Below are positions 7,212-64,000 of a stretch of 64,000 nucleotides of DNA, one piece after another (positions within the stretch are counted from its first letter, which is position 1; every line of letters begins with the position of its first letter). The DNA lies in contig CM114271.1 in NCBI GenBank assembly GCA_050084515.1, forward strand, positions 23,250,001-23,314,000, read 5' to 3'. Source of the stretch: Blasia pusilla. Lineage: Eukaryota. The notes beneath the pieces were generated by a model. It did no database searches, was not told the origin of the DNA, and saw nothing but the letters and a program-made list of their open reading frames with translations. A program made the position numbers and the translations under genes.

Positions 7212-7251
7212 TTGATCAGGTGTGGTTGTGGGGAGATGATCAGGAGCAAGC

Positions 7252-8874: not shown

Positions 8875-9088
8875 GGTAGTAGGTCATGTCAGAGAGATGT
8901 GATATTTTCTATCTGGAGTTAGGGGGATCCAACTGTCAGCTAGGGGGGCGGTTGTGTGATCTCCATGTATATGTATGAGTTAATTTTTGTACATGTGTGG
9001 ATCAACCCGTGTGTGGGGAAGATTGGTGTTGTGTGGTGTAGATGTGACGAGCGATGTATGTTGTGTAGCGATATGTATGCGCACGACA

Positions 9089-16873: not shown

Positions 16874-16879
16874 TAGTAT

Positions 16880-34800: not shown

Positions 34801-35059
34801 TATATAATTAAAAGAGGATGGGGTTAGAGAAAACCTTTCGTGATGTTGACACCTATCCTCCGAGGGTTCTTCTGGTGTTGAAAATTTTCAATTTAAGAGA
34901 GGGACTTAAGTTAAGAGGAGACAATTAAATTAAACTAGGAAAGGAAAGGAGGACCAGAGGTGCTAAATTGGATTTTTTTTAATTTGAAGATCACCGGTGC
35001 ATAGCACGCCCGTGCTACCTCTAGTTGCCCGTGCTAAACCCTCCATGAACTCTCTACCC

Positions 35060-37139: not shown

Positions 37140-37184
<45 letters not shown>

Positions 37185-37492
37185 TGGAGCTCATTCTTTT
37201 TTTTTTGAACCTCTTGGCATGAGTCAATTGAGCTATCGGCCTTCTTACCTTGTGAGTAACCCAAGCCTATCATTAGGAGAGTGGGTTTGGTTTAGAGAGT
37301 GAATTTGGTTTGACATGAAAGAGAGATGGAGATTGTGCAAGAGATTGGAGTACTTTTGATTTAAATGGAGATATTTTGGTATAAAATCGTCTCAGTCTTG
37401 ATCAGACATGAGTGAGTATAGTATCTTATGTGTATCTACTTGTAGTTAGTGACAACGATATATGTTGTATAGTGATGTGTGTGTATATGACA
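35060..37492 (+). mobile_element. Old decayed 3' half of the DNMT-gypsy family: RNase H, integrase and B-A-B tail
   Basis: Nucleotide homology to copy 2 from 52328 onward; B 36707-36831, A 36834-~37363, B ~37364-37492 ending TATGACA. Confidence 0.85.
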
Positions 37493-39250: not shown

Positions 39251-39944
39251 TTTTGTGCGTATACACATCGCTACACAACATATATTGTTGTCACTTATCA
39301 ACACACACAAATGCTAGCCTAATTCAATCATCTATCAAATATGATCATGGAGGCAAGTTGTCATCAAAATATCTCCAATATAATAGATGAAAAATCTCAA
39401 ACAACACAAAAAGAGCTCCATGGCTCTCATGCACATTGTCTTTTTCTCTCTTGTTAAACCAAACCCATTCTCATGGTGAGAGGATGGGGTTACTCACAAG
39501 GCAAGAAGCACCATAACTGCGCCGCCTCATACTCAAGAGGTTCAACAAGGAGAGTATGAGCTCTCCAAGCTCACTCTCCTTGAGATATACCTCTCTCCCC
39601 AAGTCCTCCTCACAATCTTCCTCAAAGTCTTTCCCAAAGTCCTCAATTCCGTCCTTTTCAAGGTCTTCTTCACAGTGCACCAAATTCACCAATTGACCTA
39701 AAACCTACAATAGTGGATCAAGAGCTACCTCCCGTAAATAGAAATTTAAAGCTCATATAATTGGGAAACTTACTTGAAATAGTAAATTACTCATATGACC
39801 TCCAAATAGATTTACACAAAGAGGAAACCTATTATAGTACGTTATCCTACTCCCTAGCAAGTCATCCATGACCTTTTGGACTCCGCCTCTAATCTCTACC
39901 AAAGCATCCCACAAAAACTTCGTTCCACTGTAAAAGACGTGACA
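39251..39944 (-). mobile_element. Solo A+B terminal unit of the DNMT-gypsy family
   Basis: The minus strand starts TGTCACGTCTTTTA (39944) and ends in the B segment (ATTGGAGATATTTTG...GTAGCGATGTGTATACGCAC). Confidence 0.85.
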
Positions 39945-40646
39945 CACAAAATTTAAATAAATACGTTTTACTAACATCGGCCCTCTATAAATACGAGTAA
40001 ATTATAATTTTTCCCCATCCTAAATTTGCTCTAATTTGGCTTCTTACTCCACTAAGCCCCACAAATCTTGTGTCAACTCTCATCAAATAAACTTTTAACC
40101 TAATGGCCTCCAAATAACAAGTTTTCCTAGAGTATCCATAAAAAAATAAAAAGTTTATTTTACTTTTCTACATTTCTCCTAAAGAGTTACCCAAAAAATT
40201 CAAAATTGCTCATTCTCATGCTGACTATGGTAACCCTTGCGAACAAATATAAATTTACACTCAAGCATCAAAATCCATTATTTTTTTTACAGTGTTCATA
40301 ACATCTTGATCTGAAATGGTACTTAAATTCTATTAAAAAAGGTTTAGCACTTTTTTGCGTTTCTCTTTTGCTCGAAAAATCCACACAAAATATACACAAC
40401 TAGGTAGCTCTTGCTCTCGTGAACATTCTTGTGAACCATTGAATGGGGAACATTGTCCCCATTTTGAAAATTAGCAAACACCCAACAAGCTCTTGCAGTT
40501 TAGAGCTCTCATTCCATCATTCTCTCTTTGTAAGTCAAAAGCACTCCAATATCTCACACAACCCCCATCTCGTTCTCATGTCAAGCCAAACCCAATTTCT
40601 TAATAAGAGGCTTTGATTACTCACAAAGCAAGTAAGACCATAACTC

Positions 40647-40648
<2 letters not shown>
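39945..40648 (-). mobile_element. Older 5' portion of the DNMT-gypsy family: end of A joined directly to the leader
   Basis: 40518-40536 reads CTTACAAAGAGAGAATG on the minus strand, matching the A/leader junction at 46402-46419; 40441-40470 matches 46464-46496. Confidence 0.7.
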
Positions 40649-40851
<203 letters not shown>

Positions 40852-43800
40852 TGTGTGTCATTAAAGACGTGTTAAAGAACTCTAACACGTCAAATGAATG
40901 TCACTTGTTTCAAATTCTGAAATTAGCTAAATAATTCACTTGATTTTTTGCAAAAAGACTTATGAATATGCTTCTATGATTTTTTTACCTCAATATAAGG
41001 ATTTCTCGTGTATTTCTCAATTAAACCAATAGATTATAATTTGAGTTAAAACCTCTCTGCCTACTTTTTTTCTCATCGAGCTTTATAACATCTATTCTCC
41101 CTTACGTATTACTTCAAGCTACTTAATATAATAATGAATACTTATCTTTTAGAAAATTCACTTTCATTGAGCCTAGTGCATTGCATGGGTATTCCAATAC
41201 ATTCCAATAATAAATTTTATCATGGCTTGATATAAATTTCATATTTAAAGTTTTTATTGAAACTTTCAAAATTTTAGATCTCAATAGTTTCCATTAGACA
41301 TCCTATTATTTAAGTGACTCATATTTTCTGCCTATGTGTCAACCAAGAATCCCAATCTTCCATTTTATCTAAAATATTCAAATGTTTAAGTCAAATTATC
41401 TCATGAGTCCCATTCCTAAACCCCTCCTCATTTTTAAAATCCAACCCTTCCCCCCCCTCCCCCTCGATCTCCTACCCACCATACTCCTACCTAGTAAGGT
41501 GCCCATACAATGCACTGCTAGTACGCGTTTTGAAAAGAAAATTCCATACAAAACTAGGTGACTCTATCCAAAATTATGTTTTGGAGTGACATTTGTCAAA
41601 AGGAGGTGAAATATTTAGAATAATGTGACCTCTAATTAGCTTATAGATTTTGTGATATCTCCATGGATATAGTGGAAAAGGAAAACTTCACTTATTTACT
41701 CATAAATATGAGGTTAGCTATCATTAGTACCTTTAATATTTTTGCATCTTTGGCAAACTATAGATTTTCCTTAACATGAAATCTATATGCCATTTATATG
41801 TCAAATATCAAACTATGTACCTAAAATATGACCATCTATATTAATATTAGAGATTTTTTTTTGATTTGTCCACCATGTGGTCAACTAAACAAGATTTAGT
41901 AAACATCTTGGAACATGAATATTCTTATCATATCATACAATGGGAACTTAATTTATGGCGTTTGGCGAGAATCACATTTCAAATTTGACATCAATGCATG
42001 TACATGTAGGGTTCTAGTACGTTGTGCAAGGATTTTGCATCAATAAAATCTTGTTTGATATGCTAGGCATTATTTGTATATTATTAATGTGAATGAATGA
42101 AAGAACATTTAAGGGGTGTGATGTTAAGGTCTACACTCTCTTATTCTATATTATAATAATCATCATGGGTTATAATTTAAAGGTAACAAAACGTAGATGC
42201 GTCATAGGATGATTTCCAACTTTTCCAAAGAGAAGCGGTATTAAATGAAGACGTTTAGAGTTTAGGATGTACTAGATGTATTTGGACAAGTGGGATAAGA
42301 TTGAGTGGGTTAGGTCGAATATGGTTGAAAACAACATAGGACCCATATGGTCTACATATGAAAACTAAAAACGTGTTGAAACAATTGAAACACCATAGGA
42401 TATCAACAAATGAGGCACGTAGGAAAACACCTCCTCTAGAAGGATAATTAAAAAACACACGGCACCACCCACGATGCATGTAACGGACAAATGAATGCAT
42501 TTTCCATGGGGCCTCCAAAATACTCTCCGTATAAGAGTGACTCAAAACCGTGCATGTAACGGACGAATGCAATTCAAGTCCATTTTTAATACTCCAACGT
42601 TAGGAGTGTTTATTATTTTATGGGGTGGTCGGATGAACCAGTTTCCAAGCCCGATTCTGTCTTTTAATATCTTACATTAATTTTCTCTCATGAATAATCC
42701 CTCCGACCTCTAAATCCTCCTTCCAAAAATGCAAATCATATTGAATAACCGACTAAATAATCCAAAGTAGTGATATAAACGTAATTCTCATTATTATTGA
42801 TATCGGGAATATCTATCATCGGCCTTATCTCCAAGAGCTAAATAAAATAAAATACGATAAAATAGAACGGAATGAAAGTATCAAAATATCTCGGAAACCG
42901 ATGCTATTGGTGCAGATCTCCACCCCTCGATCTCTGCCGAGCTTCACAGCCCCACCACGACCGGCGAGCTAGCCCCTCACGACCGACACTTGACGGTGCT
43001 GTTCATTATCCCGACAGACGGTGCACGGGATTATGACTTGCACTTGACGGCGACGCTCCGGGCCCATGCCCACGCCCACCAGAGATCGTGACAAAAGAGG
43101 AACTGTTGCCGTTGCACACTAAACTGTCTGTCGACGAGTTCTTCGGGAAATGCCCATCGATGATATTCGGGAATTTTAGGTGTGTGAGAGCGTGTGCGTG
43201 CTATTGGGAGGTCGAAAGGAATAAAATATATATGTAGAAAAAGATGGGAAACCCATCACGATACAAAAGAGGGGGGCATGGAGACCAAAAAATAGACCTC
43301 AAGAGGCCGGAACCGGCCCCGAGGAGACCGGAAACCGCATCCGCGGAGGAGTGGGGACTTGTTGGGTAGTAGGTTGGCTTTCCAGAATGGGGATGCAGAC
43401 AAAACATGAGGGCGGAGGCTGAGCTGTGGAGATCCCGAAGGAAATGATGAAGAGAGGTGATCCACGTCTCCCCATGTGGCTAGCCATGGCTTCTGCAGGT
43501 TCTCACAGGCTGGAGACAGGAGAGGCGAGTCTCGAGTCAGCAACAGAGCCAGAGAGATTCTGAAGGAAGGGCAGAAATCAGTAGACGATGGCTGCCGTCC
43601 TCGTCATCAGGTACGTCCAAAGCTATGGAGGGGTTCTGGAACGAGGCTCGTCTGCAGCCTTAAGGGGAGTGGAGACGACCGAAGTAGCAAGTCTCGAGTC
43701 ACCACATTGCCAGAGATATTCGGAAACGAGCGGATAGAAAGCATTACTACAGGACGGGCACTATCGTCATCAGATTCGCTGCTGCCCATGTTAGACCGCA

Positions 43801-45864
43801 TGTAGAGGCTATGTCGAGTCATTGCCGACTCACAAAGTTTGAAGGGATGGTGAATAACTTCATCATCATCGAGCGCAAATTTCGGGAGGAGAAAACAGAA
43901 CCTGAACGGCATTCGATGATTCTTCGAGACGGAGGACACAGAGTTCCCACAGGTGTTGCTTCATCTTTCATTGTTCAGATAAAGTGCTCCATCATCATCA
44001 TGTACTATACTGAGTCGGACTCGGAAATGAAGAAAGAGACTGCACTCGAGTAGCGCTGCCTTCCGCAGGCTCGAGATCATGGATCTTGTGGAAAGGGTGG
44101 GCGGTGCTAGTGGCTTGGAATCTTGGATAGGTCTCGGAAGAGGCCAGAGTGGAGCTCTACATGGGGAGACTTTCCCGCGAAGTCCTGGCTAGGAAGCTCG
44201 TTCTCCCAGGAAAAATGGGCCTTTCCTGGGTGAAATCACCATCCATGATCCTACGGCTCTTCACCGGAAGGAAAATAGCCCTTTCCTGAAATACATCGTC
44301 ACTATTGCTTAGCTACCAGACTACCAGCCACCTGTGGACATTGCGTTAGTATTTGAGGAAGGGGGGCGTTATTCCGATGGGAAGAACCTTCCAGTTGGAT
44401 TATCTCGTTTCTAAAATGAAACCAAATCAACTATTAATAGTTCACATCAAATCCTACGAAACCAAGTTAAGATATAAGATCAGTTCTAGAAACTCTAATT
44501 TCGTTCGATGCCTCATGCATCGCTCAAACGTTCTACTGGTTAAATGTAGGCACCTGTACTTGGAGAATACATTCTACTAGTTAAACAAGGCGACTATTCC
44601 TGGAGAGCAATCGTCTTCTTCTGAGAACTGAGTGCACGTGACCAGGCTTTCAGTTCAACACCATCCGGAGCATCCAGATTCCACTACAAGGCTTTGATGA
44701 AGTCCCTGACTCCCTATGCTTTCTCCTCTTCTTCTTGTTCTTTTTCTGGAGAGAGAGACGGCGAAATTTTGGAGTCCTTTATTGCTCTTTCTGTTGCAAG
44801 TTCCATAGTAGCCATTTCGTGACTGAAAGTTCCATCCTCACGGACGAAGTATCGATAATTTGTGTCCGCATTCTGCTGCCCTCGTGATTCGAGGAAAACG
44901 CCGTCCGTTGAACTTGAATGTTGTTTCTAACCTGAGAATTTCCACCTGTTTCTCGAGGGCTGCCGGTAAGAGATCTGGGAATATCTAGGATGCAGCGTAG
45001 AGAAACATCTGATTTTCTTAGTGCTTCACCGTTGTGGTGTTGATGTGAGAGTTCTCACACAAAATGTCTGACAATGTCTTAGACTACTTTTCCTGGAGCT
45101 GCCTCTGCCACCTCTAATTGGTCATGTAAGATTTATATCCATATAGTCTCCGAACCGAATTCAGATCTACCAACCTAAGTGGTAAGAGGCGATTCTCACA
45201 TGGCTCATCAAACGTCTTTCAGCCTGACTTCCTTGAGTCTATTCTCCTAGACTCTATTTATGTCCATTGGAGAAATGAAATGGAGTTTCGGAGGGAAAAA
45301 ACGAGGAGGAGGTTTTGCTTGTAGTGCTCTTGTCTATTCGATCTTAGATTCAATTTATTCCTCTTTTTCGTACTTGAATTTTGAAGTTTTCCAAAGTTCT
45401 TGGGATATGTAGACCTCCTTCTCTCATTAATATTCTTGAAGATTCTTAAACAAAATTTCGCACGGTGCAATTCCGAGTTACAATCGCTTTTTGCGATCTT
45501 TTGTTGTTGGCTAGGCCTTACATTATAACCTCATCCCTTCATATGAGTCATCGGTGGATGGCTTTCACTTTCTCCTCACAAGCTCTTCCTTTGGTGTTTT
45601 CAATTTCCTTTGGAATTTTCTCATGGAACATCGCTTTTGGTGTGTTTGGTCTGGTTTCGATTGTCATGACAAATTTTTTTATCTTCATACCAAGTGGATT
45701 TCCTACTTTTTCTTCCCTCTCTTAAGGCACCTATTTTTGGTTGCGGGTTTGTTTTAGGTGAATTCCTCTCATATGTCTTCCTTGCTCTTTCAACACTTCA
45801 CCTTACTGCTTCGCCCCTCCCTACTTTTGCTATCTCTATAAGATCCTTATAAATTAATTTTCTT

Positions 45865-46406
45865 TGTCACGTCTTTTAGGATAGATCGGTGGGATCTAAT
45901 AGAGCGCCTTCATGAGTAATGGAGGACACGCCCAGTAGGTCGAGGGTGACCTGTTGAGGCCCTTGGAAACCTGAGATAGTAGGTTTCCCCTTCGTTTCGG
46001 CTCATTTGGAGCCATATTGAAGAACTTACTATTTTAGGTAAGTACCATTTTGAATATATGATCGACTTACTATTTTTGGTAAGTGGCCCTTGACCTCCTA
46101 CCTTGACGCGTCTCGGTTTCACCTCACTAACTGCGTCAAGAGCCAAGGAGGTGACTTGGGAGAATAGGTTACCATGGAGAGAGCTTGGGAGAGGGGAGGG
46201 GTATACCTCAAGGAGAGAGAGCTTGAGAATTCATTCTCTCTTTGTTGAACCTCTTGGCATGAGGCGGCGGAGCTATGGTACCTTGCCTTGTGAGTGTAAC
46301 CCAAGCCTCTCATTAGGAGAGAGGGTTTGGTTTGACATGAGAGAGAGTGCACACCTTTGAGAGCTATGGTGTGAGATGGTGTAGAGAGAGATTGGATCTT
46401 ACTTTA
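45865..46406 (+). repeat. Terminal repeat A1
   Basis: Direct repeat of 54511-55037, with scattered substitutions and a ~30-bp indel; followed by the leader, not by B. Confidence 0.95.
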
Positions 46407-47567
46407 CAAAGAGAGAATGAGAGAGTGAGAGAGCGTCATGGGGGAGCTCGCTGGTCACTCGCTGTTTTTGCAGGTTGGGGACCGTGTTCCCCGTTCAGAG
46501 GCTCATGGGAGTGCTCATCGGAGCAAGGGCTGCTTTGATTATTCTTTGCATTTGCTGATTTTTCATGTGGAAGAGTGGCGCGCGGAAGCGTTGCCCAATT
46601 GTTGATAGGGATTGAGTATGGGGGCGGGTTGCCCCATGCTGATTTGTATTTTTACAGATGTTATATTTTCGTTGGGAGAAATCAGTGCGGGAGCGTTGTC
46701 GAATTTTGTGTAGGAGAAAGAGACATTGGGCTTTACGACAGTCCCCGTTAGTTTTTACTGAAATGTCCGATTCTAAATATTTTTTGATGCTGGTGTAGAT
46801 CGTGAAGCTGTGCACGTTGTGCAACAAACAATGCGCAATTTGGAGCTGCGAGCAAAAAGTTATGGTCAATCTTGTAAAGTTGCAATTGCTAGGCGATTTT
46901 TAGGGTTAAATTGTGCAAACCCTAAATCAGCCGCCACACCGGCGGCGGCCGTCGCCATCATAGTCACCGTCAACGGTCAACCATCAACCTTCACCTTCGA
47001 TGGTCAACCATCACCGTCAGCGTCAACCGTCACTGTCAACGGTCCACCGCCCATTGTCCACCCTTTGGGTGCCATTGCCGTCATTACGGAGTGGAGGGTC
47101 TTCCACGACGTTCGTTGAGTCCTTAACTTGCGTCGCCACCATGTACTTTGTTTTGGCCGCCACCGTCATCGCAGTTTCTTCATCAATCAGTGGTGGCAGA
47201 TGACCTCCGGTTATGGTGTTTGAGTTTTGATTTCATGTTGCTATGTTGTGATTGGTAGCCGCTCGACGACGATCGAGTATCGTGCCGTGACGCCCGTAGT
47301 CGCAACGCGCCGCCGATTGCCGCGCCGTGCCGCTCGTGGCCGCACCGCACCGTCTCGATCGCGGAGCCGCACCGTCATTGTGGAGCAGAGTGTGGGTTTA
47401 TTGTTGATTGAGGAGAGTATGCCGCCGAGTGCCGCATCCCATCATCGAGGGCCGTGCCGTTCGTAGCCGTTCCGTGCCGCCTACAACGCCGCACCGTTCC
47501 ACTGGGACCGCATTGTCTATCGAAGAGTTTTGAGCAGCGTCAGTACGGGAGGAGTATGACTTGCTGA

Positions 47568-48740
47568 TTGGAGGAGTTTTCTACTAGTGACGTTTTAGGA
47601 GGGATCACTCGCACGGGAGCAGTTGCACCGTCTAGTCGGGTTCGTCCCGGGTTCAACCGTGTGGTTGAGTTCTTTGCTGAGTTGAGGGCGAGCTACCAGG
47701 GGTTACGGACGGGGAAGTTGCGGAGCATCCATGACTTCCAGAGGCGTCCGGGTGAGAGTTTGCGTGAGGCTTACACTCACTTGCGCCGGTTGATCAACGT
47801 CACTTAGGGGGTGACAGAGGCTCAGGCTATCCAGTCATGGTACGCGATGTTGGACCGGACCCTGCGGACACGGGTGCGGGAGGGGTTGCTTCTTATGAAC
47901 ACCTCCCCTACGTTGAGAGATGTTTTTAGGACCGCCGAGAACATTGAGCGCAACATGGCGGAGGAGAGCGTAGCCACCATGGGTTCTCGGGCGAGAGCGA
48001 TCCACGATTTATCCGCACCACCTATGCAAAGCAACGTGGACTCGAGATAGGTCGGCGTGGCACCACGAGCTCGGGGAGGATACCGGGGAGGCCGTGCCAC
48101 GAGACTGCGCCTTCATATGCGGCTCGGCCAGCGGCCGCCTACTATTACTTGTTGGTCATTGGTGAAGCCCATCATCAACACGATTGCACTCGTCAAGGTC
48201 ATGGGCGTGTGCCTCAAAGATGGAGGAGGAGATGGTGCTTTGCACCAGGGAGGTTATCTGTGTGACTATTGTCGAGGTATGGTCATACACGCCGGAGGTG
48301 TTTTAGTTTACATCCTGAGTTACGTCCGGACCGAGGGCCAGAGAGGGCACCAGATCGAGTAGCCGGTCCGGGTGGGCCTAGAGATCGTGCACCCCTGTTG
48401 GGAGACGAGGAGCTGGAGTTGCCGAACAGGGTGGTGGAGCTGCCCGTGGAGGAGGTAGAGTACCACCACCTAGACGCGCCGAGGGAGACGCCGGACGTGA
48501 GGCTGGGATGATCTTTGAGATATAGCGACTCTGGGGAGCAGATTGCCGCTATGGCATTGAGGTTACCCGATGCCGGATCCGTGACATCGACATCATATGG
48601 AGCATCCAGAGATTTGGAGGATCCTGGATGGATGTGCGGGGTTGCCCAGATGGAGGCCGCCGAAGTTGTGACGCGTGGAGCAGCCGCAGAGTTGGATCCA
48701 CAGCGAGGGGAAGCCAGAAGACAGACTAGGCTTCCTTAGT
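47568..48740 (+). pseudogene. gag of copy 2
   Basis: FQRRPGESLREAY (retrotransposon gag motif); degenerate CCHC knuckles at ~48149 and ~48260. Confidence 0.8.
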
Positions 48741-49053
48741 CTTTCACGTTGTCCGAAGCGATGAGGACCCCATCGATGGGTCCTCATCAAAGTTCGTGGA
48801 GAGTTGGTGATGTTGTTGGTGTGCAGACACGAAGGGCGATGGGAAAAGCGAGTGCGACGACTCTATTGTTGATGCTCATGAGGGGCATGTGTCGAGCATG
48901 ACGTTGGGGGGTACGCCCGCCGAGGCTTTTCGGCTGGCCGCTTCACTATGTGAGCGCGGAGTTGGATTTCTGCATCACGTTCAGAAGTGATGGCAGAGGA
49001 GGTGATGGACCTGCCCTTGGAGCGGATGCTAGGGCCGCCGCCCACGCCGATTC

Positions 49054-51117
49054 ATGGTAGGTCATGCGGTCGCTAGGATGGCGGAGATGCCCGCTAGATC
49101 CGCGATAGAGCGTGCCATGGCTTCTCCTGGTGTTGTGTTGTTGGATAACCGAGGAGAGGTCTTCCAGTTGGTGAGTCCTGGAGGTAGAGCTTTTAGTCCG
49201 CAGCGCGTCTTGTTGGATTCACGAGCACAACCCTTGATGTTGGGGAAAGCGTCATTTAGAGGATTGGGCTTGACGAGAGCCGATGTGGAACGTTGTCCAT
49301 TCCGGATCCAGACATCCTTGGGTGGAGCGAGTACCACACAGTATATCACCCGACAAGAGGTCATGGTGAGGATTCTCCCGGGACATCCTACAGATGAGTC
49401 CGTGGTGCGCGCCAAGGCGATAGTGACTGATGTTGAGTCCTACGACGTCTTGGTTGGTGGAGCAGTGTTATATCCGATGGGGTTTTCCTGGATTCTTGGG
49501 AGGAGTCGGCCCTATAGACCAGGATGGCAGTCAGGTGATGGGCGCCTTAGCTCATTACCCGTTCGATTCACAGGTGCAGTGATCGAGCAACGGCCAGGAG
49601 AGATGGCGACCTTAGCAGCATTTAGCAATGCCATCACTTGGCCTAGTGATTTGATTGAGGGACATGTCCATGCAGAGGATAATCCCGTTCCTGACATTTC
49701 TATGGAGAGGAGTGTTATGGGAGCTGCATCATTCCGTGGAGGAGAGGTGCCGCTGTGGGGCTCGACTGAGGAGCTCCAACGATTGGCAGATGAGCACGTG
49801 CAGATCGCGTGGAGCGAGGCGTTTGCACCAGAGCGTGACGGGTCTGAGGAACCCGAGGTAGCAGGGAGTGCTACGATGACACCCTTGGATACCACACCCA
49901 TTGTGTGGTGTACCCCGGAGGAGGGTATTCGAGTGTTAGATCTCTTTGGAGGGATTAGCACCGGGTTAGCTGTTTTGCAGGCAAGAGTGCGAGTACAGCA
50001 ATACCTGTATGTGGAGAGTGATGATGTTGCGAGGCGCGTCTCACTACGACATGTGGCGCAATTACGCCTACGTTTTCCCGACTTATTGTCTGCGTCCGCA
50101 GTACAGGGGTACCAGAGTTCCCTACCGAGGGATATTTTGTTGTTGGGGGCGCAGGACTTAGAGCGGGTAGGGACCATTGATTTGGTCATTTTCGGTTGGC
50201 CATGTCAGGGCCAATCGAGTGTAGGACGAGGCAGCGGGTTGGCTGACACTCGGTCCAGGTTGTTTTGGGAGATGTTGAGGGTCTTACGGCAGTTGCAGGA
50301 GCACCAGTCTCGTTCTCTAGCCTACATTCTGGAGAATGTGCCGATCTTAGGAGACTCCATGTCACGGGTCGTGACAAGTGCTCATCAGGTGCGTGCCCGG
50401 ATCGGCCCAGCAGTGTTCTTGGATGCGGCGAGTGTAGGTTCTAGAGCCCATCGCCCGCGTCTATGGTGGACCAACTTGGTGCCCCATGCGGTGTTATGGA
50501 GGGCGTATGCGAGAGTGGAGCGCCCCTCCCCTTTGTTAGTGGATTCCATTCTCGATCCAGATCGTCGATCACAGGCAGTGAGGCACGATGATCGACCACC
50601 GCTGACTGTGGTCAATAGGGTAGGCAGGCCGCGGGCAGCCTTGTCCATGTTTGTGAGTTTTCCCGCTTCCTATGCATACAAGGAGACCGGTCCTGGCTTG
50701 GTTTGGGATGACGAGGTTCAGCGGTTGGTGGAGCCCAACGCCGACGAGAGAGAGCGAGCGATGGGATTTTCCACAGGAGTGACGGCAGTACCATCAGTGT
50801 CAGAGGCATCACGACGCCATGTCTTGGGTCGGGCGATGGACCTGAATTGCTTGACATGGATCCTCAGCTTGGGAGTGGCTGAGCAGCGTCGTATGAGATC
50901 GCGACATATCACAGCGGTTGCGTTGGTGAGCCCCATGCCTACCGAGATGGTGGAGGTGTGGGGGGCGAGGCGAGACCGAGGAGATCTACGCACTAGGGGA
51001 GATCGGGAGAGACACCCTTGGACTTCTTGGGATGTTTTGAAGGTACGCAAGGAGATGATAGCCACACCATCAAGCGTGGTTTCGGGCACTGCACGTGGAG
51101 GAGATCAGAGTTTGTAG
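49054..51117 (+). CDS. pol segment: aspartic protease fused in frame to a DNMT3-like C5 cytosine methyltransferase (MTase ~49921-50870)
   Basis: LLDSRAQP at 49216 (DSG in copy 1); RVLDLFGGISTG, YVESD, DLVIFGWPCQGQS (PC at 50200-50205), YILENV (50332-50340), RAHRPRLWWTNL, ERERAMGF, SRRHVLGRAMD, all in one open frame. Confidence 0.93.
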   Translation: MVGHAVARMAEMPARSAIERAMASPGVVLLDNRGEVFQLVSPGGRAFSPQRVLLDSRAQPLMLGKASFRGLGLTRADVERCPFRIQTSLGGASTTQYITRQEVMVRILPGHPTDESVVRAKAIVTDVESYDVLVGGAVLYPMGFSWILGRSRPYRPGWQSGDGRLSSLPVRFTGAVIEQRPGEMATLAAFSNAITWPSDLIEGHVHAEDNPVPDISMERSVMGAASFRGGEVPLWGSTEELQRLADEHVQIAWSEAFAPERDGSEEPEVAGSATMTPLDTTPIVWCTPEEGIRVLDLFGGISTGLAVLQARVRVQQYLYVESDDVARRVSLRHVAQLRLRFPDLLSASAVQGYQSSLPRDILLLGAQDLERVGTIDLVIFGWPCQGQSSVGRGSGLADTRSRLFWEMLRVLRQLQEHQSRSLAYILENVPILGDSMSRVVTSAHQVRARIGPAVFLDAASVGSRAHRPRLWWTNLVPHAVLWRAYARVERPSPLLVDSILDPDRRSQAVRHDDRPPLTVVNRVGRPRAALSMFVSFPASYAYKETGPGLVWDDEVQRLVEPNADERERAMGFSTGVTAVPSVSEASRRHVLGRAMDLNCLTWILSLGVAEQRRMRSRHITAVALVSPMPTEMVEVWGARRDRGDLRTRGDRERHPWTSWDVLKVRKEMIATPSSVVSGTARGGDQSL

Positions 51118-51213
51118 TTGGCTGCAAGAGAGCGGCCGAGTGTTGTTGTTCGAGACGGGGTTGCACCATAGCAACCACCGATACCCGCGCCGGAGAGTCC
51201 TACCGTAGTCACG

Positions 51214-52709
51214 ATGGAGACTTGGGAGCCAAATATGGGCCCTAAGTTGACAGGAGGAGAGTGGCGCCGAATACATCAGTTCCTCAAGAGTTATAGGAGC
51301 TGCTTTGCGTTTAGCATGGAGGATTTGGGTACGCTGAAGGGACCGGGGATCCGCATTGAGTTGTCGAGTGATATGCCGATCTTCCGGCGACCCTACAGTG
51401 CTGATGATATGGAGAGGGCTCTGATTCAGAGTAGGAGCCATGACTTGGTCGGAGCAAGACTAGTGGAGATGTCGCATGGGGAGTATGCATCTGCCATTGT
51501 CATGCCCGCCAAGAAGGATGTGCATGGCAACTGGACGGATAGGCGGATGTGTTGGGATTACCCACCTATCAATCGGCAGACGAAGTCCGATAGGTATGCC
51601 ATGCCCACCCCTGAGGAGATCTTTGATGCGATTGGTCACGCAAAGGTCTTTAGTTCATTGGATTTGCGAGCCGGATACCATCAACTACCTATCATTGGAG
51701 GACAGGCAGAAGACGGCATTTTGGGGCATCGATCCTCACGGGAAGGATTGTTTGTACCAGTGGCGGTTCTTACCATTTGGATTAAAGAACGCCCCGGCTG
51801 AGTTTCAGAGGGTCATGGATAGGATCTTGGCTAGTCTGGATTTTGCTAGGTGTTATATTGATGACATCGTAGTCTTTAGCGCCACGGTTGAGGAGCATGA
51901 GCAACATCTAGAGGAGGTGTTTCGACGATTGCAATTACATGGGCTGAAGCTACATCTAGGCAAGTGCAAGTTCTTCTACGACCAGATTGAGTACTTGGGT
52001 CATTCGATATACCCAGGGGGCCTTGGTGTTCAACAGACGAAGGTAGAGGCTATCTCACGCATTCCACATCCTACAGATGTGAGCCGTGTTCGCGCATTCA
52101 TGGGATTGGCGAACTTCTATCGGCGATACGTCAAGGGATTGATTCGATTATGGCCACTGACCTTGGTGACCAAGGTGGATCACGAGTGGCACCTTTGGGG
52201 ATGAGTAGGAGCGAGCATTTCATTGCTCAGGACAAGTTGGCGTCGCACCCATCTTGAGGAGACCGATCGGGCGTCCTTTCGATTGCACCGATTGGAGCAT
52301 GTTGGGGCTTGGAGCGGTGCTCACCCATCATGATGATGAGGGTAGAGAGTTCGTGGTGGCTTACGCTAGCCGCTCAAACAACGCTGCAGAGGCGAAGTAC
52401 AACTCGTTTGAGGGTGAGTGCTTGGCTGCGGTGTGGGCTGTCGCGCATTTCAGATGTTACTTATTCGGAAACCCCTTTACCATCATCACTGATCATCAAC
52501 CACTAAAGTGGTTGATGGAGTCCGACAAGCTTACAGGGAAGCTTGCGAGATGGGCTCTGTTGTTGCAGGAGTATGATTTTCAGGTGGTACATAGACCTGG
52601 GACGCTCAACCAGGATGCAGATGGGTTGAGTCATAACCCATGCCCGAGTCAGCGAGATGCAATTGGAGCTCGATGGCATGGAGAGAGTGATGAGGAGTCG
52701 GTGCCATGA
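51214..52709 (+). pseudogene. RT and RNase H of copy 2 (frameshifted)
   Basis: FSSLDLRAGYHQ, PFGLKNAP, CYIDD (51851-51865), YLGH; TDWS..GLGAVL, ECLA, TDHQPL, ADGLS. Confidence 0.95.
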
Positions 52710-52733
52710 TGGCACGCGTCAGCCTATTTAGGC

Positions 52734-54201
52734 ATGTTGGCTATGGAGAGCCAGAGTGTGGAGACTTCGATGGCAAGGTCTAGTGGAGAGTCCTTGGATC
52801 CCGAGGCCAGTGAGGACACGACAAGTGGCCGAGATATTCATGATGATGGAGTAGTCTTAGAGTACCTTCGTACTGGCAGCCTTGCGAGCACCATGGATGC
52901 TAGAGAGCGGGATCGGATCCTACAGCGGGCCATACGGTTCCGTTGGGAGGGGACAAATGTTTTGAGAGTTTGGGAGGATGGCAGAGTACGCGTAGTGCCG
53001 CATCCTTCACAGAGAGCACGACTAGTGCAGCCTGCCCACGAGGAGTTGGGTCACTTTGGAGTGAAGCGGACGTATAGCTTGCTCTAGATTCAGTATTGGT
53101 GGCGAGGCATGCAGACTGACGTTCAGCAGTTTGTTGCCAGGTGCATGGTGTGATCGGGTCCGAGCATCGTTCAATGCTCCGACTCTACAGTTGCATCCAT
53201 TATAGATCATGGGCTTAGGGTATAGATGGAGTTTGGATTTTGCAGGACCTTTGCCCTTGACGGAGCGTCACAGTCGTTATGTGTTGGTGATGGTCGAGCA
53301 CTTCTCGAAGTGGATCGAGTTGGTTGCATTTCCTAACAAAGCGAGTGAGGGAGTAGCTTATGCCTTCCTTGACAGAGTGTTGAGTCATTATGGCGCACCG
53401 GATGAGGTGTTGACAAACCACGGTACCGAGTTTCGCGGTGAGTTCCAGGCCTTGTGTGATCAGGCGCTGATCAACCACCGTACGACTTCGCGAGATCATC
53501 CTGAGGCGGATGGATTAGCGGAGAGAGTTGTGTAGACAGTGAAGAGGGATTTACGCAAGTATGGCTTGCAGAGAGGTCACCTAGGAGATCACCGTACTTG
53601 CTACTTTATGGCCGAGAGCCAGATTTACCTGCGGCCATTCGTCGAGATGCTGGTGAGGTACTGAACCTTGATGACCCAGATGTATGGGTGCGAGCATGTT
53701 CTCAGAGGGCTGAGTTATTTCGGAGAGTGATGCCCATGGCGTTCGAGAACTTGGCGATTGCACAAGATCGGGATACGTTGAGGTATGCGACTATTCGAGG
53801 TGGTGGTTATCGACCAACTATCCGGAGGTTTCATCAGGAGATTATGTCTACTTGCGGACAGACGGCACCGCAGCGTTGGAATGATCTGCAGGCGCACTAT
53901 CCTGAGAGTGCGTGACATTTTGCCATCGGGTGTTCTCTTGCTGGAGGGACGCGATGGTATGGTATGGAAGGACCATGTGCGTAATTGTGCGCCATGTCAC
54001 CTTCCTAACATTGATGGTATAGTAGATCCGAGCTTAGCAGTAGTTCCTGCAGGCTTGCGTTGTATGTTGTGTGGTTCTGCCCGTGGTGCGGCCACGATGC
54101 TAGTCTATGATGGGTGTTTGAGAGGATGGCATATGGCATGTTTGACGCCACCTCTCACTAGGGTTCCTCAGGGACGATGGATGTGTCCCAGATGTACATA
54201 G
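52734..54201 (+). pseudogene. DDE integrase with C-terminal PHD finger (54061-54195), copy 2
   Basis: HEELGH...CMVC zinc finger; SLDFAGP; LTNHGTEF (second Asp mutated to Asn); GLAERVV; PHD with one Cys-to-Tyr change. Confidence 0.93.
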
Positions 54202-54369
54202 AGAAGGTAGTTCTACATTCCGACTTGTGTCTGTGACATGGATGACAAGGAGGCGACTAACGATGGGGCCACATGAGCACCCGGCCTTCTTGCTCTAGCG
54301 TCCGAGAGATGTATGTCATGGTAGGTAGGGATAGATGGCTATCTGGAGTTAGAGGGACCTAACCACCAA

Positions 54370-54380
54370 CTAGGGGGGCG
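54370..54380 (+). promoter_or_regulatory. Polypurine tract
   Basis: CTAGGGGGGCG, identical in copy 1 (8940-8950), directly before segment B. Confidence 0.75.
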
Positions 54381-55164
54381 ATTGGAGATATTTTGGTACG
54401 TCTTGTCTCGTTGTTTGGATGCCATGAGTTAGCATGGGATCATGCGTGTTTGTGTGTGTGTTAGGTGACAGCGATGTATATTGTGTAACGATGTGTATGC
54501 GCACGACAGTTGTCACGTCTTTTAGGATAGATCGGTGGGATCTAATAGAACGCCTTCATGAGTAGTGGAGGACACGCCCAGTATGTCAAGGGTGACGTGC
54601 TGAGGCCCTTGGAAACCTGAGATAGCAGGTTTCCCCTTCGTTTCGGCTCATTTGGAGCCATATTGAGGAACTTACTATTTTAGGTAAGTACCATTTTGCA
54701 TATATGATCGACTTACTATTTTTGGTAAGTGGCCCTTGACCTCCTACATCAGGTCAAGAGCCAAGAAGGTGACTTGGGAGAATAGGTTACCATGGAGAGA
54801 GCTTGGGAGAGGGGAGGGGTATACCTCAAGGAGAGAGAGATTGAGAGCTCATTCTCTCTTTGTTGAACCTCTTGGCATGAGGCGGTGGCATGAGGCGGCG
54901 GAGCTATGGTACCTTTCCTTGTGAGTGTAACCCAAGCCTCTCATTAGGAGAGTGGGTTTGGTTTGACATGAGAGAGAGTGCACACCTTTGAGAGCTATGG
55001 TGTGAGATGGTGTAGAGAGAGATTGGATCTTACTTTATTGGAGATATTTTGGTACTGCTTGTCTCGTTGTTTGGATGCCATGAGTTAGCATGGGATCATG
55101 CGTGTTTGTGTGTGTGTTCGGTGACAACGATGTATGTTGTGTAGCGATGTGTATGCGCACGACA
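54381..55164 (+). repeat. 3' terminal block B1 (54381-54508) - GT - A2 (54511-55037) - B2 (55037-55164)
   Basis: B1 and B2 are 128-bp direct repeats ATTGGAGATATTTTGG...GCGCACGACA; A2 repeats A1. Confidence 0.95.
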
Positions 55165-55617
55165 TCTTAAGCCACTTCTTTTGATACCATATAGGCTACT
55201 TCTACTTTTAAATTGCTTTCTATAGTTCCTAAAATGACTTTCAATCATAAATTTATCTTGAATTATCTTATTCTCTCCATCTTAATCTATTTTGGATGGA
55301 TTCCACTACTTTTATTGTAGTCGTTATCCTAAAATTCCCACAAAATTATAATTCATGTCTTCTCTTGTTTTGAATAACATATCTACTTTTAGTTCCATGG
55401 ATATGGAGTTGGATAATCCATCTACTCACTTATTTGGTTTTACATGTCTTCCTTCAATCGTAACCTTTTCCCATGGTTCTCCTCCTTATCTTCCATCTTT
55501 TCTATCCTTATCCCCTTTATTCCTCCTTCCCCAACCTACTTACCCCCTCATAGTTGTATATCATCATCTCAAGCACCTTCCATCTCTTCTCCTCATAATC
55601 CTTCTACTTTTACATCT

Positions 55618-58490
<2,873 letters not shown>

Positions 58491-62810: not shown

Positions 62811-64000
62811 TGTCTTAAGGAAGGACTTGTGCATTTTTTTGTGACTTCCCCATGTCATATTACTATGACTCCTCCGACGTCTAAATCGGAACCATCAATC
62901 TAGGCTTCTCCTCATACAAGGGGGCCGATCAGATTAATGATGCTCGGAGAAGTGGATCTTGAGAATCCAACAAATCTATCTTTTTTATCCTAATTAATTT
63001 GGTTTTAAGTTTTATTCTCATATTTTTACCACCATATGGATTCTTATGTTTCTTTATGAATGAATTTTAATTGAGATGTAGGAATTGGAAAAGGAAACAA
63101 CCCTTTCAAATGATAAAATAAAAAAGAACGTAATAACGTGCTTAATAAATTTTGGAATAAAGCCTTAATCTTAAATAGAGAATGCAAAACCCTAAGAAAT
63201 AAACTCTTACTCCAAAATGAAAAAATCATGAACTTATAAAAATATAAACTCGAAATCCAAAAAACCACCTATACTTTTTTAAGATGTAATACAGGAACAC
63301 TTAAGCAAAAAAAATAAGTTATTAAAAATACTAGAGTATGCCCATGCGATGGATTGGTTTAAATTACCTCCCAAAATAATAATAAATTTTTGAATTGTGA
63401 AATGTCATTTTAAATGAACTGCAAGCAATCTTATTGGCTCATAAGGTGAGCCATCCTATTGGTTGAGAGTGCCAAGTGTGAGCAGGAGAGGAGTTTGCAC
63501 AATGAAAGGCGATATGCAATAATAATATAGATGATTTTGAAAATTGATTCCATAAACCCTACCTGTAAAAATGGAAACCTTTAACACTAAGAAAATCATG
63601 CATTGAAACCTATAACATCCTAGATCGGGAATAATAAACCCAAGAAAATATTTTATAAGACACTAAAAATTATTAACAACTAATAATATTTGAAGTTCCT
63701 ATTTCTTGAGGTACCCAAACCCTACCTTCCATAATTGAAATTAAAAAAGAAGACATTCTTAGGTACACTAAATAGCCTACCTTTTCAAGGAATCTATAAA
63801 ATAAACATTGCACAATAGAACCTTGACATATGAACATAGTAAATCCTAACTCAAAAAAAATCAATAATTAATCCCAACTATTTTCTTATAAGGGAAAGAA
63901 ATCACGCAATTAAACCATAATTTGATGTCCTAAAAATAACACTTTAATGAAACAAGATTTTTTTGAAAATAATCATCTCATGCCTTGGAAACATGTCTTA

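Follow-up and report, generated by a model that had tools for sequence, protein, structure and literature searches.

A decayed Ty3/gypsy-type retrotransposon of Blasia pusilla with a predicted DNMT3-like methyltransferase domain between protease and reverse transcriptase

Why would a retrotransposon carry the type of enzyme that cells use to silence jumping genes? This question is raised by a stretch of Blasia pusilla DNA 64,000 nucleotides long, hereafter the window (GCA_050084515.1, contig CM114271.1, positions 23,250,001 to 23,314,000 of the forward strand). A first reading of the letters alone (the sequence-only reading) had pointed to a 687-aa open frame that joins a protease to a complete C5 cytosine methyltransferase (DNMT) within a Gypsy element. 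It had also stated that retrotransposon-borne DNMTs were reported from dinoflagellates and charophyte algae, with no characterised case known in land plants. This agrees with the available part of de Mendoza et al. 2018 (PMC5890265), which places such DNMTs in dinoflagellates and Klebsormidium only, and our literature search likewise found no description of DNMT-bearing retrotransposons in land plants. What, then, is the element, is the domain a lasting part of its family, and what might it do?

The element spans 45865-55164 (9.3 kb) and is referred to here as copy 2. Its order is gag, protease (PR), DNMT, reverse transcriptase (RT), RNase H (RH), integrase (IN) and PHD finger. It is very probably a dead Ty3/gypsy-type element with a DNMT3-type domain in frame between PR and RT and a PHD finger after the integrase. 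Its features are:

45861-45864, no strand: 5' target-site duplication TCTT, four bases repeated at 55165-55168
45865-46406, plus strand: terminal repeat A1, starting with TG, from alignment with A2
47847-48784, plus strand: gag remnants in two frames, from tblastn of the Marchantia gag-PR-DNMT protein P0007
49033-51117, plus strand: PR and DNMT open frame, collinear with proteins P0008, P0007, P0023 and P0003
49066-49872, plus strand: aspartic protease region, from collinear homologues with Asp_protease_2
49873-50862, plus strand: predicted DNMT3-like C5 cytosine methyltransferase domain with motifs I-X, unpermuted
51115-51171, plus strand: two in-frame stop codons in the gap between DNMT and RT (translation, ORF list)
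51172-52204, plus strand: reverse transcriptase with a frameshift near 51.7 kb (RVT_1, E = 6.3e-24)
52209-52709, plus strand: RNase H (RT_RNaseH, E = 9.3e-34)
52710-53831, plus strand: integrase, H2C2 zinc finger and DDE core (Integrase_H2C2, rve)
53860-54201, plus strand: PHD finger C-terminal to the integrase (PF00628, E = 2.5e-9), one zinc ligand changed in copy 2
54370-54380, plus strand: polypurine-tract-like run directly 5' of B1, also found before B1 in metagenome elements L075, L074, L043 and L044
54381-54508, plus strand: repeat B1, 6 differences in 127 bases from B2
54511-55037, plus strand: repeat A2, from alignment with A1
55038-55164, plus strand: repeat B2, forming the 3' end of the element and closing with CA, from the similarity end point and RNA reads
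55165-55168, no strand: 3' target-site duplication TCTT, matching the 5' flank

The Pol part has the composition of Ty3/gypsy elements, namely PR-RT-RNase H-integrase with RT_RNaseH, Integrase_H2C2 and rve domains, and the DNMT lies between PR and RT. Residues 145-212 and 287-438 of P0007 align to 47847-48056 and 48275-48784 in frames 3 and 2 (tblastn), and the ORF list holds no ORF above 113 aa in the gag region of copy 2. The protease was assigned from its collinear homologues, of which P0023 and P0215 carry Asp_protease_2 (residues 796-888 in P0215); the protease of the window copy gave no Pfam match, and its active-site triplet at 49219-49227 departs from D-S/T-G. The RT alignment switches frame between 51630 and 51746 (tblastn), and the integrase contains an in-frame stop and frameshifts, with P0039 aligning in frames 3, 1 and 3 (tblastn). 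The best PDB matches of the PHD finger are CHD4 PHD2, PHF12, KDM5 PHD1, PHF21A and ATXR5. Copy 2 is dead: RT, RNase H and integrase are hit by frameshifts and stops, and the element is unable to transpose because of the stops and frameshifts from 51115 onward and the broken gag.

The termini of the element are TG...CA, bordered by the 4-bp target duplication. Three window copies lose similarity at the same 3' point, and RNA reads continue into unlike sequences past 55164. The repeats are arranged as A1...B1-A2-B2 (A-coding-B-A-B) and are not plain LTRs, B being missing after A1. Alignment of A1 with A2 gives 19 mismatches in 514 aligned bases (K2P 0.038) and two indels. Two identical LTRs flanking a PBS...PPT unit are not present; the PPT-like run precedes B1 and not A2, no tRNA-type PBS is recognisable after A1, and the word TGGTA occurs close to where B starts. 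A DIRS element was considered and rejected, given the DDE integrase (rve) and the 4-bp target duplication, and Pfam gave no match to the tyrosine recombinase PF00589 in the window element or in the family polyproteins. B1 ends in CA and is followed by two bases and then the TG of A2, and this internal B-NN-A junction (CA-NN-TG) resembles the joint of a circle closed end to end. The CpG observed/expected ratio is 0.84 in the element and 0.38-0.49 in two flanking stretches.

By sequence and predicted fold, the domain is confirmed as a DNMT3-like, unpermuted C5 cytosine methyltransferase. The frame at 49033-51117 (plus strand) contains 694 codons from stop to stop and the expected 687 when counted from the ATG at 49054 (ORF list). 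The PF00145 search that the sequence-only reading had proposed returned a match in the 694-aa frame at 38.5 bits (Pfam gathering score 22), limited to aa 380-442, which correspond to motifs IV-VI; homologues reach 27-48 bits with the same model. PF00145 is the sole Pfam match in the frame, where neither PWWP nor ADD was found and the N-terminal part is protease. The motifs named by that reading are all in the translation in canonical order: I, DLFGGIS (49939-49959); II, YVESD; IV, GWPCQG (50194-50211); VI, ILENVP; VIII, SRAHRPRLWWTNL; IX, ERERAMGF; and X, LGRAMDLN. Motifs I, IV (PC), VI (ENV), VIII (RxR), IX and X are thus all there and unpermuted.

A phmmer search of PDB sequences aligned the domain collinearly with DNMT3A (E = 6.4e-13, 51.6 bits), DNMT3C (4e-10) and DNMT3B (6e-10). 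Weaker matches were DRM2 (2.8e-4, through its permuted C-terminal part alone), M.HhaI (5e-3) and DNMT2 (0.04), and DNMT1 was not among the 53 PDB matches. With DNMT3A, DNMT3C and DNMT3B as the best PDB relatives, the earlier assignment as DNMT3-like, and not DRM, MET1 or CMT, holds. A permuted DRM-type enzyme is rejected by the collinear DNMT3A alignment, and a bacterial-type origin is rejected by the E values of M.HhaI (5e-3) and DNMT3A (6e-13). An AF2 model of the domain built on a 46-sequence alignment reached a pLDDT of 92.4 and a pTM of 0.90; a 15-sequence alignment gave a pLDDT of 56.5. Every Foldseek match listed for this model is a full DNMT3A/B/C chain or the methyltransferase domain of one (E 1e-18 to 1e-15), with a TM to target of 0.80-0.83 for isolated DNMT3 domains and E of about 1e-18 for the top matches. 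In the 46 aligned domains, which are 31-64% identical to that of the window, the catalytic positions are kept (C of PC, Q, the E/N of ENV and, in motif VIII, H-R-x-R; at least 90%). The motif set is kept also in an alignment of 15 DNMT domains.

Further copies of the element lie elsewhere in the window:

1896-9088, plus strand: diverged copy 1, gag to B1, 66-77% nucleotide identity to copy 2
15766-16874, minus strand: fragment spanning the DNMT C-terminus and the RT N-terminus, 90% identical to 50753-51861
35059-37483, plus strand: 5'-truncated copy 4, RNase H to the 3' end with its own B-A-B, 70% identical to 52320-55155
39255-39598, minus strand: isolated 3'-terminal fragment of a further copy, by similarity to the element 3' end

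The DNMT is kept in two of these, copy 1 and the fragment at 15766-16874. The sequence-only reading had placed the domain at the same position in copy 1, and its C-terminus before RT in a fragment at 15764-16873; both placements stand, the second with slightly shifted limits. In copy 1, the segment 4599-5535 matches the DNMT of a Marchantia polyprotein (tblastn), but the domain (4596-5540) is split over three frames, and thus copy 1 is broken; its B end lies at 9044-9088. Copy 4 contains an internal repeat (36709-36822 and 37366-37483). As a separate observation on the window, the look-alike clusters of a MAX2-like F-box gene are streptophyte.

Beyond the window, DNMT-bearing homologues are present in Marchantia, Calypogeia and Sphagnum proteins that were deposited unremarked, those of Marchantia polymorpha as 'hypothetical', and the family DNMT domain occurs at 80 metagenome loci. 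Searched with family sequence profile A1, the family comprises 382 clusters at E<=1e-30. Among the matches listed, the closest named relatives of the window element come from liverworts and Sphagnum (peat moss). Marchantia P0008 (PR-DNMT-RT-RH) and P0007 (gag-PR-DNMT) are both collinear with the window element. A protease region lies upstream of the DNMT in 22 of 24 named bryophyte proteins, the other two consisting of DNMT only, and RT or RH lies upstream of it in none of the 24. One member, P0215, is an unbroken 2,327-aa ORF with zf-CCHC, Asp_protease_2, DNA_methylase, RVT_1, RT_RNaseH, Integrase_H2C2 and rve. The A...B-A-B repeats recur in metagenome elements L043, L074, L075 and L044/L047, and three of the four distinct metagenome elements examined have a perfect 4-bp target-site duplication. 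In viral contigs, profile A1 found no relative, and sequence profile A2 found only viral or phage methyltransferases of 23-43% identity, none of them family members. Together, the window copies, the bryophyte proteins and the metagenome loci support the earlier view that the DNMT is a fixed part of the family rather than an isolated capture. Judged by these homologues, the family is shown to span liverworts (Marchantia, Calypogeia), Sphagnum and many environmental sequences. Its persistence in bryophytes runs against the absence of such transposons from land plants that is stated in the available part of an opinion paper (PMC6338049).

A second arrangement is found in green-algal and environmental sequences, including Haematococcus lacustris and Cymbomonas tetramitiformis. 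In these type 2 elements the order is RT-RNase H-DNMT-integrase-PHD, so that the DNMT sits between RNase H and integrase, whereas in type 1 (bryophyte, including the window element) it sits between protease and RT. Integrase_H2C2, rve and a C-terminal PHD finger are found in both. In a midpoint-rooted FastTree of the DNMT domains of 175 of 215 proteins (the 40 with a DNMT match below 270 aa were left out), all 88 type-2 domains group in a single clade that includes no type-1 member (SH-like support 0.876). One may ask whether DNMT capture in the bryophyte elements was separate from that in the Gypsy-DNMT3 elements of algae and Klebsormidium, a convergent event that drew on a host DNMT3. The different Pol position, with the type-2 order in the green-algal and most environmental sequences, would be consistent with this, as would the recurrence of DNMT capture described in the available part of PMC5890265. 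No Klebsormidium sequence appears among the homology-search matches listed, nor does a named host DNMT3. However, the two types resemble each other far more closely than either resembles cellular DNMT3: the type-1 profile matches type-2 proteins at 207-300 bits, compared with the 51.6 bits of the window domain against DNMT3A. A type-1 and a type-2 protein are also equally diverged in DNMT (38% identity) and RT-RH (39%), both types carry the PHD finger after the integrase, and the A-coding-B-A-B repeats fit the description of the Klebsormidium nitens element KnitGypsy-Dnmt3 in that part of PMC5890265. We therefore consider convergent capture improbable.

Transcription was followed in three RNA-seq runs of the source organism, with 722, 802 and 748 reads placed on the element. 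In six bins across 49141-51126, run X22 has a first-mate-minus depth of 2.1-10.1 and a first-mate-plus depth of 0-3.1, and RNA depth rises inside repeat A1 (bin 46162-46492). Since only 17-19 reads per run, of 722-802, are at least 99% alike to the window copy, the RNA stems from sibling copies rather than copy 2. At position 49222, within the protease triplet, the first-mate-minus reads differ from the window in 5/5, 11/12 and 10/10 cases. These data show strand-biased transcription of sibling copies, in the coding direction. An RNA joint from 54441 to 55108, seen in 12-15 reads per run, is explained most simply by read mapping across the two near-identical B copies with their variable TG run.

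Most genomic copies of the family are decaying: among 39 loci with an unbroken DNMT alignment, three are free of in-frame stops and 36 contain them. Over longer times the picture is one of constraint. Between copy 2 and copy 1, dN/dS is 0.19 for DNMT (322/330 codons), 0.22 for PR, 0.12-0.15 for RT, 0.10 for RH, 0.08 for IN and 0.12 for PHD, and deep metagenome-locus pairs give a median DNMT dN/dS of 0.15 (35 pairs), ratios that are rough because the deep-pair dS is saturated (0.95-2.5). Estimated from these alignments, purifying selection on the DNMT is shown to be long-term and about as strong as on the other Pol domains. Close copies behave differently, with high dN/dS of 0.54 and 0.92 within the window and medians of 0.54-0.92 for close metagenome-locus pairs (dS below 0.8). 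The sequence-only reading had proposed dN/dS across copies as a check, with values near 1 to count against it; the deep pairs (0.15-0.19) show constraint, and the close copies give the higher ratios.

These close-pair ratios of 0.5-0.9, the broken state of all window copies and the stops in 36/39 metagenome loci could be taken to mean that the DNMT is a relic, captured once and catalytically or biologically irrelevant in land plants, of which only decaying debris is left. The available part of PMC5890265 adds that KnitGypsy-Dnmt3 gave no methylation in yeast, a result its authors regard as inconclusive because human DNMT3B also failed. However, neutral decay after insertion yields high close-copy ratios in any transposable element family, and the deep ratios lie in the same range as those of RT, RH and IN. 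The catalytic residues kept across the 46 divergent domains, the intact 2,327-aa polyprotein and the coding-strand transcription of sibling copies also argue against a relic, which we regard as quite unlikely.

Rather than a relic, the domain in intact family members is on balance a putatively active de novo DNA methyltransferase. Another reading would keep the domain functional and deny it DNA as a substrate, so that its target would be the RNA of the element, or its role within Pol would be structural or one of nucleic-acid binding. The available part of PMC5890265 raises RNA methylation for a LINE-borne DNMT, and the silence of the Klebsormidium domain in yeast would fit such a role. The fold and target-recognition region of the AF2 model superpose on DNA-bound DNMT3A/B/C structures, though, the RNA-methylating DNMT2 matches far more weakly than DNMT3A (E 0.04 vs 6e-13), and the full catalytic motif set is kept. 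A non-DNA role is thus about as unlikely as the relic. Finally, host exaptation of the PR-DNMT frame of copy 2, kept open (694 codons, against no gag frame above 113 aa) while the rest decays (the downstream 3.1 kb contains four or more frame changes and three or more in-frame stops), is very improbable, since the protease triplet is altered, nearly all RNA reads differ from copy 2 at fixed positions and so give no sign that its locus is expressed, five of the six read differences listed inside the frame change a residue, and the length of the frame is partly a selection effect of an ORF picked for being long.

We then propose how a DNA-methylating domain might serve the element. As part of Pol, the DNMT would, as the sequence-only reading had suggested, be packaged with RT and integrase and could methylate the element's own new cDNA or fresh insertion, as is also proposed in the available part of PMC5890265; by this analogy the step is conceivable, with somewhat less than even chances. 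It is tempting to speculate that the PHD finger, which resembles readers of unmodified H3 tails, guides integrase and methyltransferase to chromatin with unmethylated H3K4, much like the chromodomain of chromoviruses, a step we hold to be possible and rather doubtful. Equally tentative is the whole picture of a transcribed bryophyte lineage that combines a two-part de novo methylation module (DNMT3 at the PR/RT junction and an H3K4me0-type PHD finger) with A-coding-B-A-B replication.

Retrotransposons that bear a methyltransferase invert the usual logic in which DNA methylation sets host against transposon. Were the enzyme active, the element would mark its own cDNA or insertion site with 5mC and select silent chromatin; a land plant would then harbour a transposon that sets up an epigenetic state of its own. 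The family extends an algal rarity to land plants; the earlier hosts, dinoflagellates and one charophyte alga, are genetically hard. Since the family is present in Marchantia polymorpha, the target of methylation (cDNA, insertion site or host genome) would be testable in a tractable plant whose methylation pathways have been studied in depth. The DNMT position, shifted with respect to the algal relatives, bears on the ways in which retroelements take up, rearrange and employ the chromatin modules of their hosts, and so does the joint presence of a DDE integrase, split repeats of DIRS type and a target duplication of 4 bp.

Among cellular enzymes, DNMT3A/3B/3C are the best matches of the window domain by sequence and by structure, and these and plant DNMT3/DRM share with it the catalytic fold, motifs I-X and PC/ENV/RxR. 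The motif order is also shared, except that DRM is permuted and the window domain is not. Unlike cellular DNMT3, the window domain lacks PWWP and ADD and is embedded in a retrotransposon polyprotein, and its motif VIII-IX stretch exceeds that of DNMT3A by about 25 residues (alignment). Judged by shared architecture and not by a tree, the window element is of the same kind as KnitGypsy-Dnmt3 as described in the available part of PMC5890265: both have an unpermuted Dnmt3-type domain in the Pol ORF, a Gypsy composition and A-coding-B-A-B repeats, the latter likened by description and not by sequence. In that source the repeats of KnitGypsy-Dnmt3 are said to be as in DIRS elements, and its DNMT has a Ka/Ks below 0.2, comparable to the 0.19 and 0.15 (deep pairs) of the window family. 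KnitGypsy-Dnmt3 resides in a charophyte alga; for the window element, the nearest relatives with a name come from liverworts and Sphagnum. SymbioDIRS-Dnmt3 of Symbiodinium, as far as the same part of PMC5890265 describes it, likewise has a Dnmt3-type domain in Pol and A-coding-B-A-B repeats, and two structural variants with different domain orders coexist; it uses a tyrosine recombinase, whereas the window family has a DDE integrase and 4-bp target duplications. Chromoviruses, which are also Ty3/gypsy elements, carry a chromatin reader on the integrase C-terminus as the window element does; theirs is a chromodomain, and that of the window element is a PHD finger, by sequence of the CHD4 PHD2, KDM5 PHD1 and PHF21A class.

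The frame that the sequence-only reading had described is present on the plus strand of the main element (copy 2, 45865–55164). It occupies 49033–51117, with 694 uninterrupted codons between two stops; counted from the ATG at 49054, there are 687. Its translation matches the Pfam profile PF00145 (C-5 cytosine DNA methylase) with 38.5 bits, where the cut-off is 22; the match is confined to aa 380–442 of the frame, which is the motif IV–VI core. The full motif set listed in that reading is legible in canonical order.

Motifs read in the translation of the window DNMT domain
Motif I: DLFGGIS
Motif II: YVESD
Motif IV: GWPCQG
Motif VI: ILENVP
Motif VIII: SRAHRPRLWWTNL
Motif IX: ERERAMGF
Motif X: LGRAMDLN

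Among the sequences of solved structures, DNMT3A (E 6.4e-13), DNMT3C (E 4e-10) and DNMT3B (E 6e-10) are collinear with this domain. DRM2 (E 2.8e-4) aligns through its permuted C-terminal part only, and M.HhaI and DNMT2 match at E 5e-3 and 0.04. Structure prediction gave a poor model with an alignment of 15 sequences (pLDDT 56.5), and with 46 family sequences it reached a pLDDT of 92.4 and a pTM of 0.90. Searched against the PDB with Foldseek, the latter returned exclusively DNMT3A/3B/3C among the matches listed (E ~1e-18), with a TM to target of 0.80–0.83 for isolated methyltransferase domains. Because the sequence matches and the model fold agree, the domain is DNMT3-like and unpermuted, as originally proposed. 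Over its first 280 residues, the frame aligns collinearly with homologues having Asp_protease_2, and the frames 3' of the DNMT match RVT_1, RT_RNaseH, Integrase_H2C2, rve and a PHD finger in Pfam. The DNMT3-fold domain with its full catalytic motif set thus lies in Pol between protease (PR) and RT; gag remnants are found 5' of the PR-DNMT frame.

The ends of the element were delimited by self-comparison.

Terminal repeats of copy 2
45865–46406: repeat A1, 542 nt, recurs as A2
54381/54382–54508: repeat B1, 127 nt, 6 differences from B2
54511–55037: repeat A2, K2P 0.038 against A1
55038–55164: repeat B2, recurrence of B1 and 3' terminus of the element

These positions give the order A1-coding-B1-A2-B2, which is not that of two plain LTRs and is combined with a DDE integrase, TG...CA termini and 4-bp target duplications. 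Copy 2 starts with TG, ends with CA and has TCTT on both flanks. A conserved polypurine-like G-rich run adjoins the 5' side of B1, not A2. The similarity ends exactly at the B2 terminus in three window copies, and RNA reads crossing 55164 run into dissimilar sequences. At the B1-A2 junction, two bases separate the CA that ends B1 from the TG that opens A2; this CA-NN-TG resembles an end-to-end junction of element termini.

Four further copies or fragments of the element lie in the window.

Other copies in the window
about 1896–9088: copy 1, 66–77% identical to copy 2
15766–16874, minus strand: fragment with DNMT C-terminus and RT N-terminus, 90% identical
35059–37483: copy 4, 5'-truncated, same B-A-B end
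39255–39598, minus strand: terminal fragment, same B-A-B end

The DNMT-RT fragment had been recognized from the sequence and is confirmed. It is adjoined by a 1-kb inverted pair of another repeat family (14676–15681 / 23627–24613, 80% identity). The claim that copy 1 carries the same domain also stands, but its DNMT (4599–5535) is split over three frames. Copy 1 is interrupted by a ~360-nt insertion at 6801–7161, with relatives at 33245–33617 and 62854–62973 (85–91% identical), and its RNase H region holds an 81-nt tandem duplication (7252–7415). It is bracketed by an inverted repeat (264–471 / 9711–9931, 73% over 226 nt); no A-type direct repeat was found for it in the window.

Copy 2 itself is dead, as its stops, frame changes, broken gag and altered protease triplet attest. 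Two in-frame stops separate DNMT from RT; RT, RNase H-integrase and integrase-PHD lie in different frames with more stops besides; the longest gag frame is at most 113 aa; and the protease active-site triplet is not D-S/T-G. The PR-DNMT frame is open for all of its codons, whereas several frameshifts and stops disrupt gag (46407–49032) and RT-RNase H-integrase (51118–54201) of copy 2. Such a long open frame amid decay might be taken for host exaptation of the PR-DNMT part, which is unlikely; chance together with selection by the reader may account for it.

Beyond the element, one frame stands out as the sole clear host gene seen in the window: 729 aa without interruption on the minus strand (28390–30579). 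Its nearest Atlas clusters (score 0.97) are F-box proteins of Streptophyta, namely MAX2 and related F-box/LRR proteins. The DNMT-bearing copies have 53% GC against an AT-rich background, and a CpG observed/expected ratio of 0.81–0.84 against 0.38–0.49 in two AT-rich flanks. The MAX2-like frame, the GC contrast and the liverwort source of the element's nearest named relatives among the matches listed make it likely that the host is a bryophyte, probably a liverwort. A ~300-nt array of an 8–10-nt unit occupies 40593–40894, and a long CT/GA dinucleotide run lies at about 57050–57200.

A homology search with the DNMT region retrieved at least 44 proteins. The best named among the matches listed come from Calypogeia fissa (70%), Marchantia polymorpha (56–65%, many) and Sphagnum (55%), and a profile search for longer proteins added further Marchantia and Sphagnum fallax entries among the matches listed. 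A protease region precedes the DNMT in 22 of 24 named bryophyte proteins and the DNMT stands alone in two, with RT or RNase H upstream in none of the 24. The Marchantia protein P0008 has PR-DNMT-RT-RNaseH in a single frame, and the homologue P0215 is a single 2,327-aa ORF with zf-CCHC, Asp_protease_2, DNA_methylase, RVT_1, RT_RNaseH, Integrase_H2C2 and rve. Judging from these uninterrupted orders, intact members translate the methyltransferase within gag-pol. An exhaustive profile search retrieved 382 clusters with E<=1e-30, rising to 1,475 with E<=1e-10, and 80 loci of this element type were found in a scan of metagenomes. The bryophyte proteins, the 80 loci and the intact P0215 bear out the earlier view of a fixed family domain.

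The complete A...B-A-B arrangement is present in 5 of the 31 metagenome loci of at least 11 kb (L043, L074, L075 and the near-identical L044/L047), and additional loci have a short B...B pair 3' of the coding region. Perfect 4-bp duplications (CATA, AAGG, TCTC) stand beside TG...CA ends in three of four distinct metagenome elements, L044 being not clear-cut; with the window copy, the count is four of five.

We then estimated dN/dS by the Nei-Gojobori method for each domain.

dN/dS, copy 2 against copy 1
PR: 0.22
DNMT: 0.19 (322/330 codons)
RT: 0.15 and 0.12
RNase H: 0.10
Integrase: 0.08 (71/137 codons)
PHD: 0.12

These ratios are rough because dS is saturated (0.95–2.0); nonetheless, the DNMT is about as constrained as the core Pol domains. 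Between copy 2 and the 90% identical fragment, dN/dS is 0.54 for the C-terminal part of the DNMT and 0.92 for RT, and close copies look neutral. The DNMT alignment is unbroken in 39 of the 80 metagenome loci, three of these 39 being free of in-frame stops; median pairwise dN/dS is 0.54–0.92 at dS <0.8 and 0.15 for 35 deep pairs. Ratios across copies, proposed earlier as a check, are well below 1 for deep pairs (0.15–0.19) but not clearly so for close ones (0.54–0.92). Such a pattern is expected of an active lineage under long-term constraint whose inserted copies decay, and it shows the majority of the copies seen to be dead.

Three 2026 RNA-seq raw-read runs carrying the host species label and one contig set were mapped to 45500–55400, yielding 722, 802 and 748 reads per run from 6–12% of each run. 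Nearly all reads are 95–99% alike to the window copy with many fixed differences, and only 17, 19 and 18 are at least 99% alike; the reads therefore come from sibling copies, not from copy 2. At 49222, they carry the canonical protease residue in place of the altered one of the window copy (5/5, 11/12 and 10/10). Reads cover the internal region from end to end, the DNMT included, with a strong strand bias: in run X22 (bins 49141–51126), the first-mate-minus depth is 2.1–10.1 against a first-mate-plus depth of 0–3.1. With stranded libraries of the usual kind, this bias means coding-strand RNA, and the family is transcribed. Genomic DNA contamination would not yield such a bias. The depth climbs within A1 (bin 46162–46492), consistent with a transcription start there.

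A second domain order exists among the relatives. Pfam scans of nine long relatives place RVT_1 and RT_RNaseH on the N-terminal side of the DNMT, and Integrase and PHD on its C-terminal side, in seven; PF00145 matches at E<=1e-3 in four of the seven, and the DNMT position in the others comes from the profile match. These type-2 elements have the PHD after the integrase as in type 1, but place the DNMT between RNase H and integrase instead.

Domain orders in 215 proteins (blastp census)
RT/RNase H-DNMT-integrase(-PHD): 90
PR-DNMT(-RT...): 50
DNMT only: 73
Without DNMT: 2

A FastTree phylogeny of 175 DNMT domains unites the 88 type-2 domains, without exception, in a single clade of 117 tips that lacks type 1 (support 0.876), and 33 of 34 type-1 domains lie on the other side. 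The window domain groups with Calypogeia and Marchantia in a 19-member clade (support 1.0). The type-2 relatives (among proteins P0055–P0313) come from green algae and many environmental sequences, the named hosts among the matches listed being the chlorophytes Haematococcus lacustris and Cymbomonas tetramitiformis. P0008 (type 1) and P0075 (type 2) are 39% identical in RT-RNase H and 38% in the DNMT. The separate positions of the two orders suggest a single relocation of the DNMT within Pol, and from this tree, which is built without host DNMT3, we infer one old green-lineage transposon lineage in which the domain moved once.

The PHD finger follows the integrase (window 53860–54201) in both types (proteins P0061, P0070, P0073–P0075, P0083 and P0053), went undetected in P0215, the intact type-1 polyprotein, and has lost one zinc ligand in copy 2. 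Its best solved relatives are CHD4 PHD2, PHF12, KDM5 PHD1, PHF21A, ATXR5, KAT6A/DPF3 and AIRE. These are mostly readers of unmodified H3 tails (H3K4me0), as is the ADD of cellular DNMT3. The integrase-fused PHD finger could steer insertion to silent chromatin. Protease processing would place the methyltransferase in the particle or pre-integration complex with RT and integrase, where it might methylate new cDNA or the insertion site; the association with RT and integrase and both targets follow the model of de Mendoza et al. (PMC5890265). It is tempting to speculate that the substrate of the integrase is a circular or concatemeric intermediate, opened at B-NN-A, which would produce both A-coding-B-A-B and a target duplication.

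The finding of the sequence-only reading is real and was well interpreted. Its statement that such elements were reported in dinoflagellates and charophyte algae is correct, the reported cases being dinoflagellates and Klebsormidium (de Mendoza et al. 2018, PMC5890265); the words 'Marchantia', 'moss' and 'Physcomitrella' are absent from the main text of that paper. In the portions available, PMC12344493 and a 2026 preprint (10.64898/2026.05.21.726589) hold only the phrase 'streptophytes (Gypsy-DNMT3)', both referring to de Mendoza et al. 2018, and the Marchantia methylome paper PMC5784723 has no mention of a retrotransposon-borne DNMT3. In line with the earlier statement that no land-plant case was characterised, the full texts searched describe no such element from a bryophyte, and an earlier mention in a subscription journal or a supplement is possible.

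The closest known system is KnitGypsy-Dnmt3 of Klebsormidium nitens, which has a Gypsy domain composition yet A-coding-B-A-B repeats, as in copy 2; its trial in yeast, the only functional test of such elements, was negative but inconclusive (PMC5890265). The A-coding region-B-A-B order is typical of DIRS elements (de Mendoza et al. 2018, PMC5890265), from which copy 2 differs by its DDE integrase and target-site duplication. The element is not a new kind of system, because DNMT3 domains borne by retrotransposons were described in 2018 and public bryophyte annotations already contain homologous proteins, unremarked. It represents a lineage in land plants that has a Pol architecture of its own, close relatives in a genetic model, and evidence both of constraint and of transcription at present.
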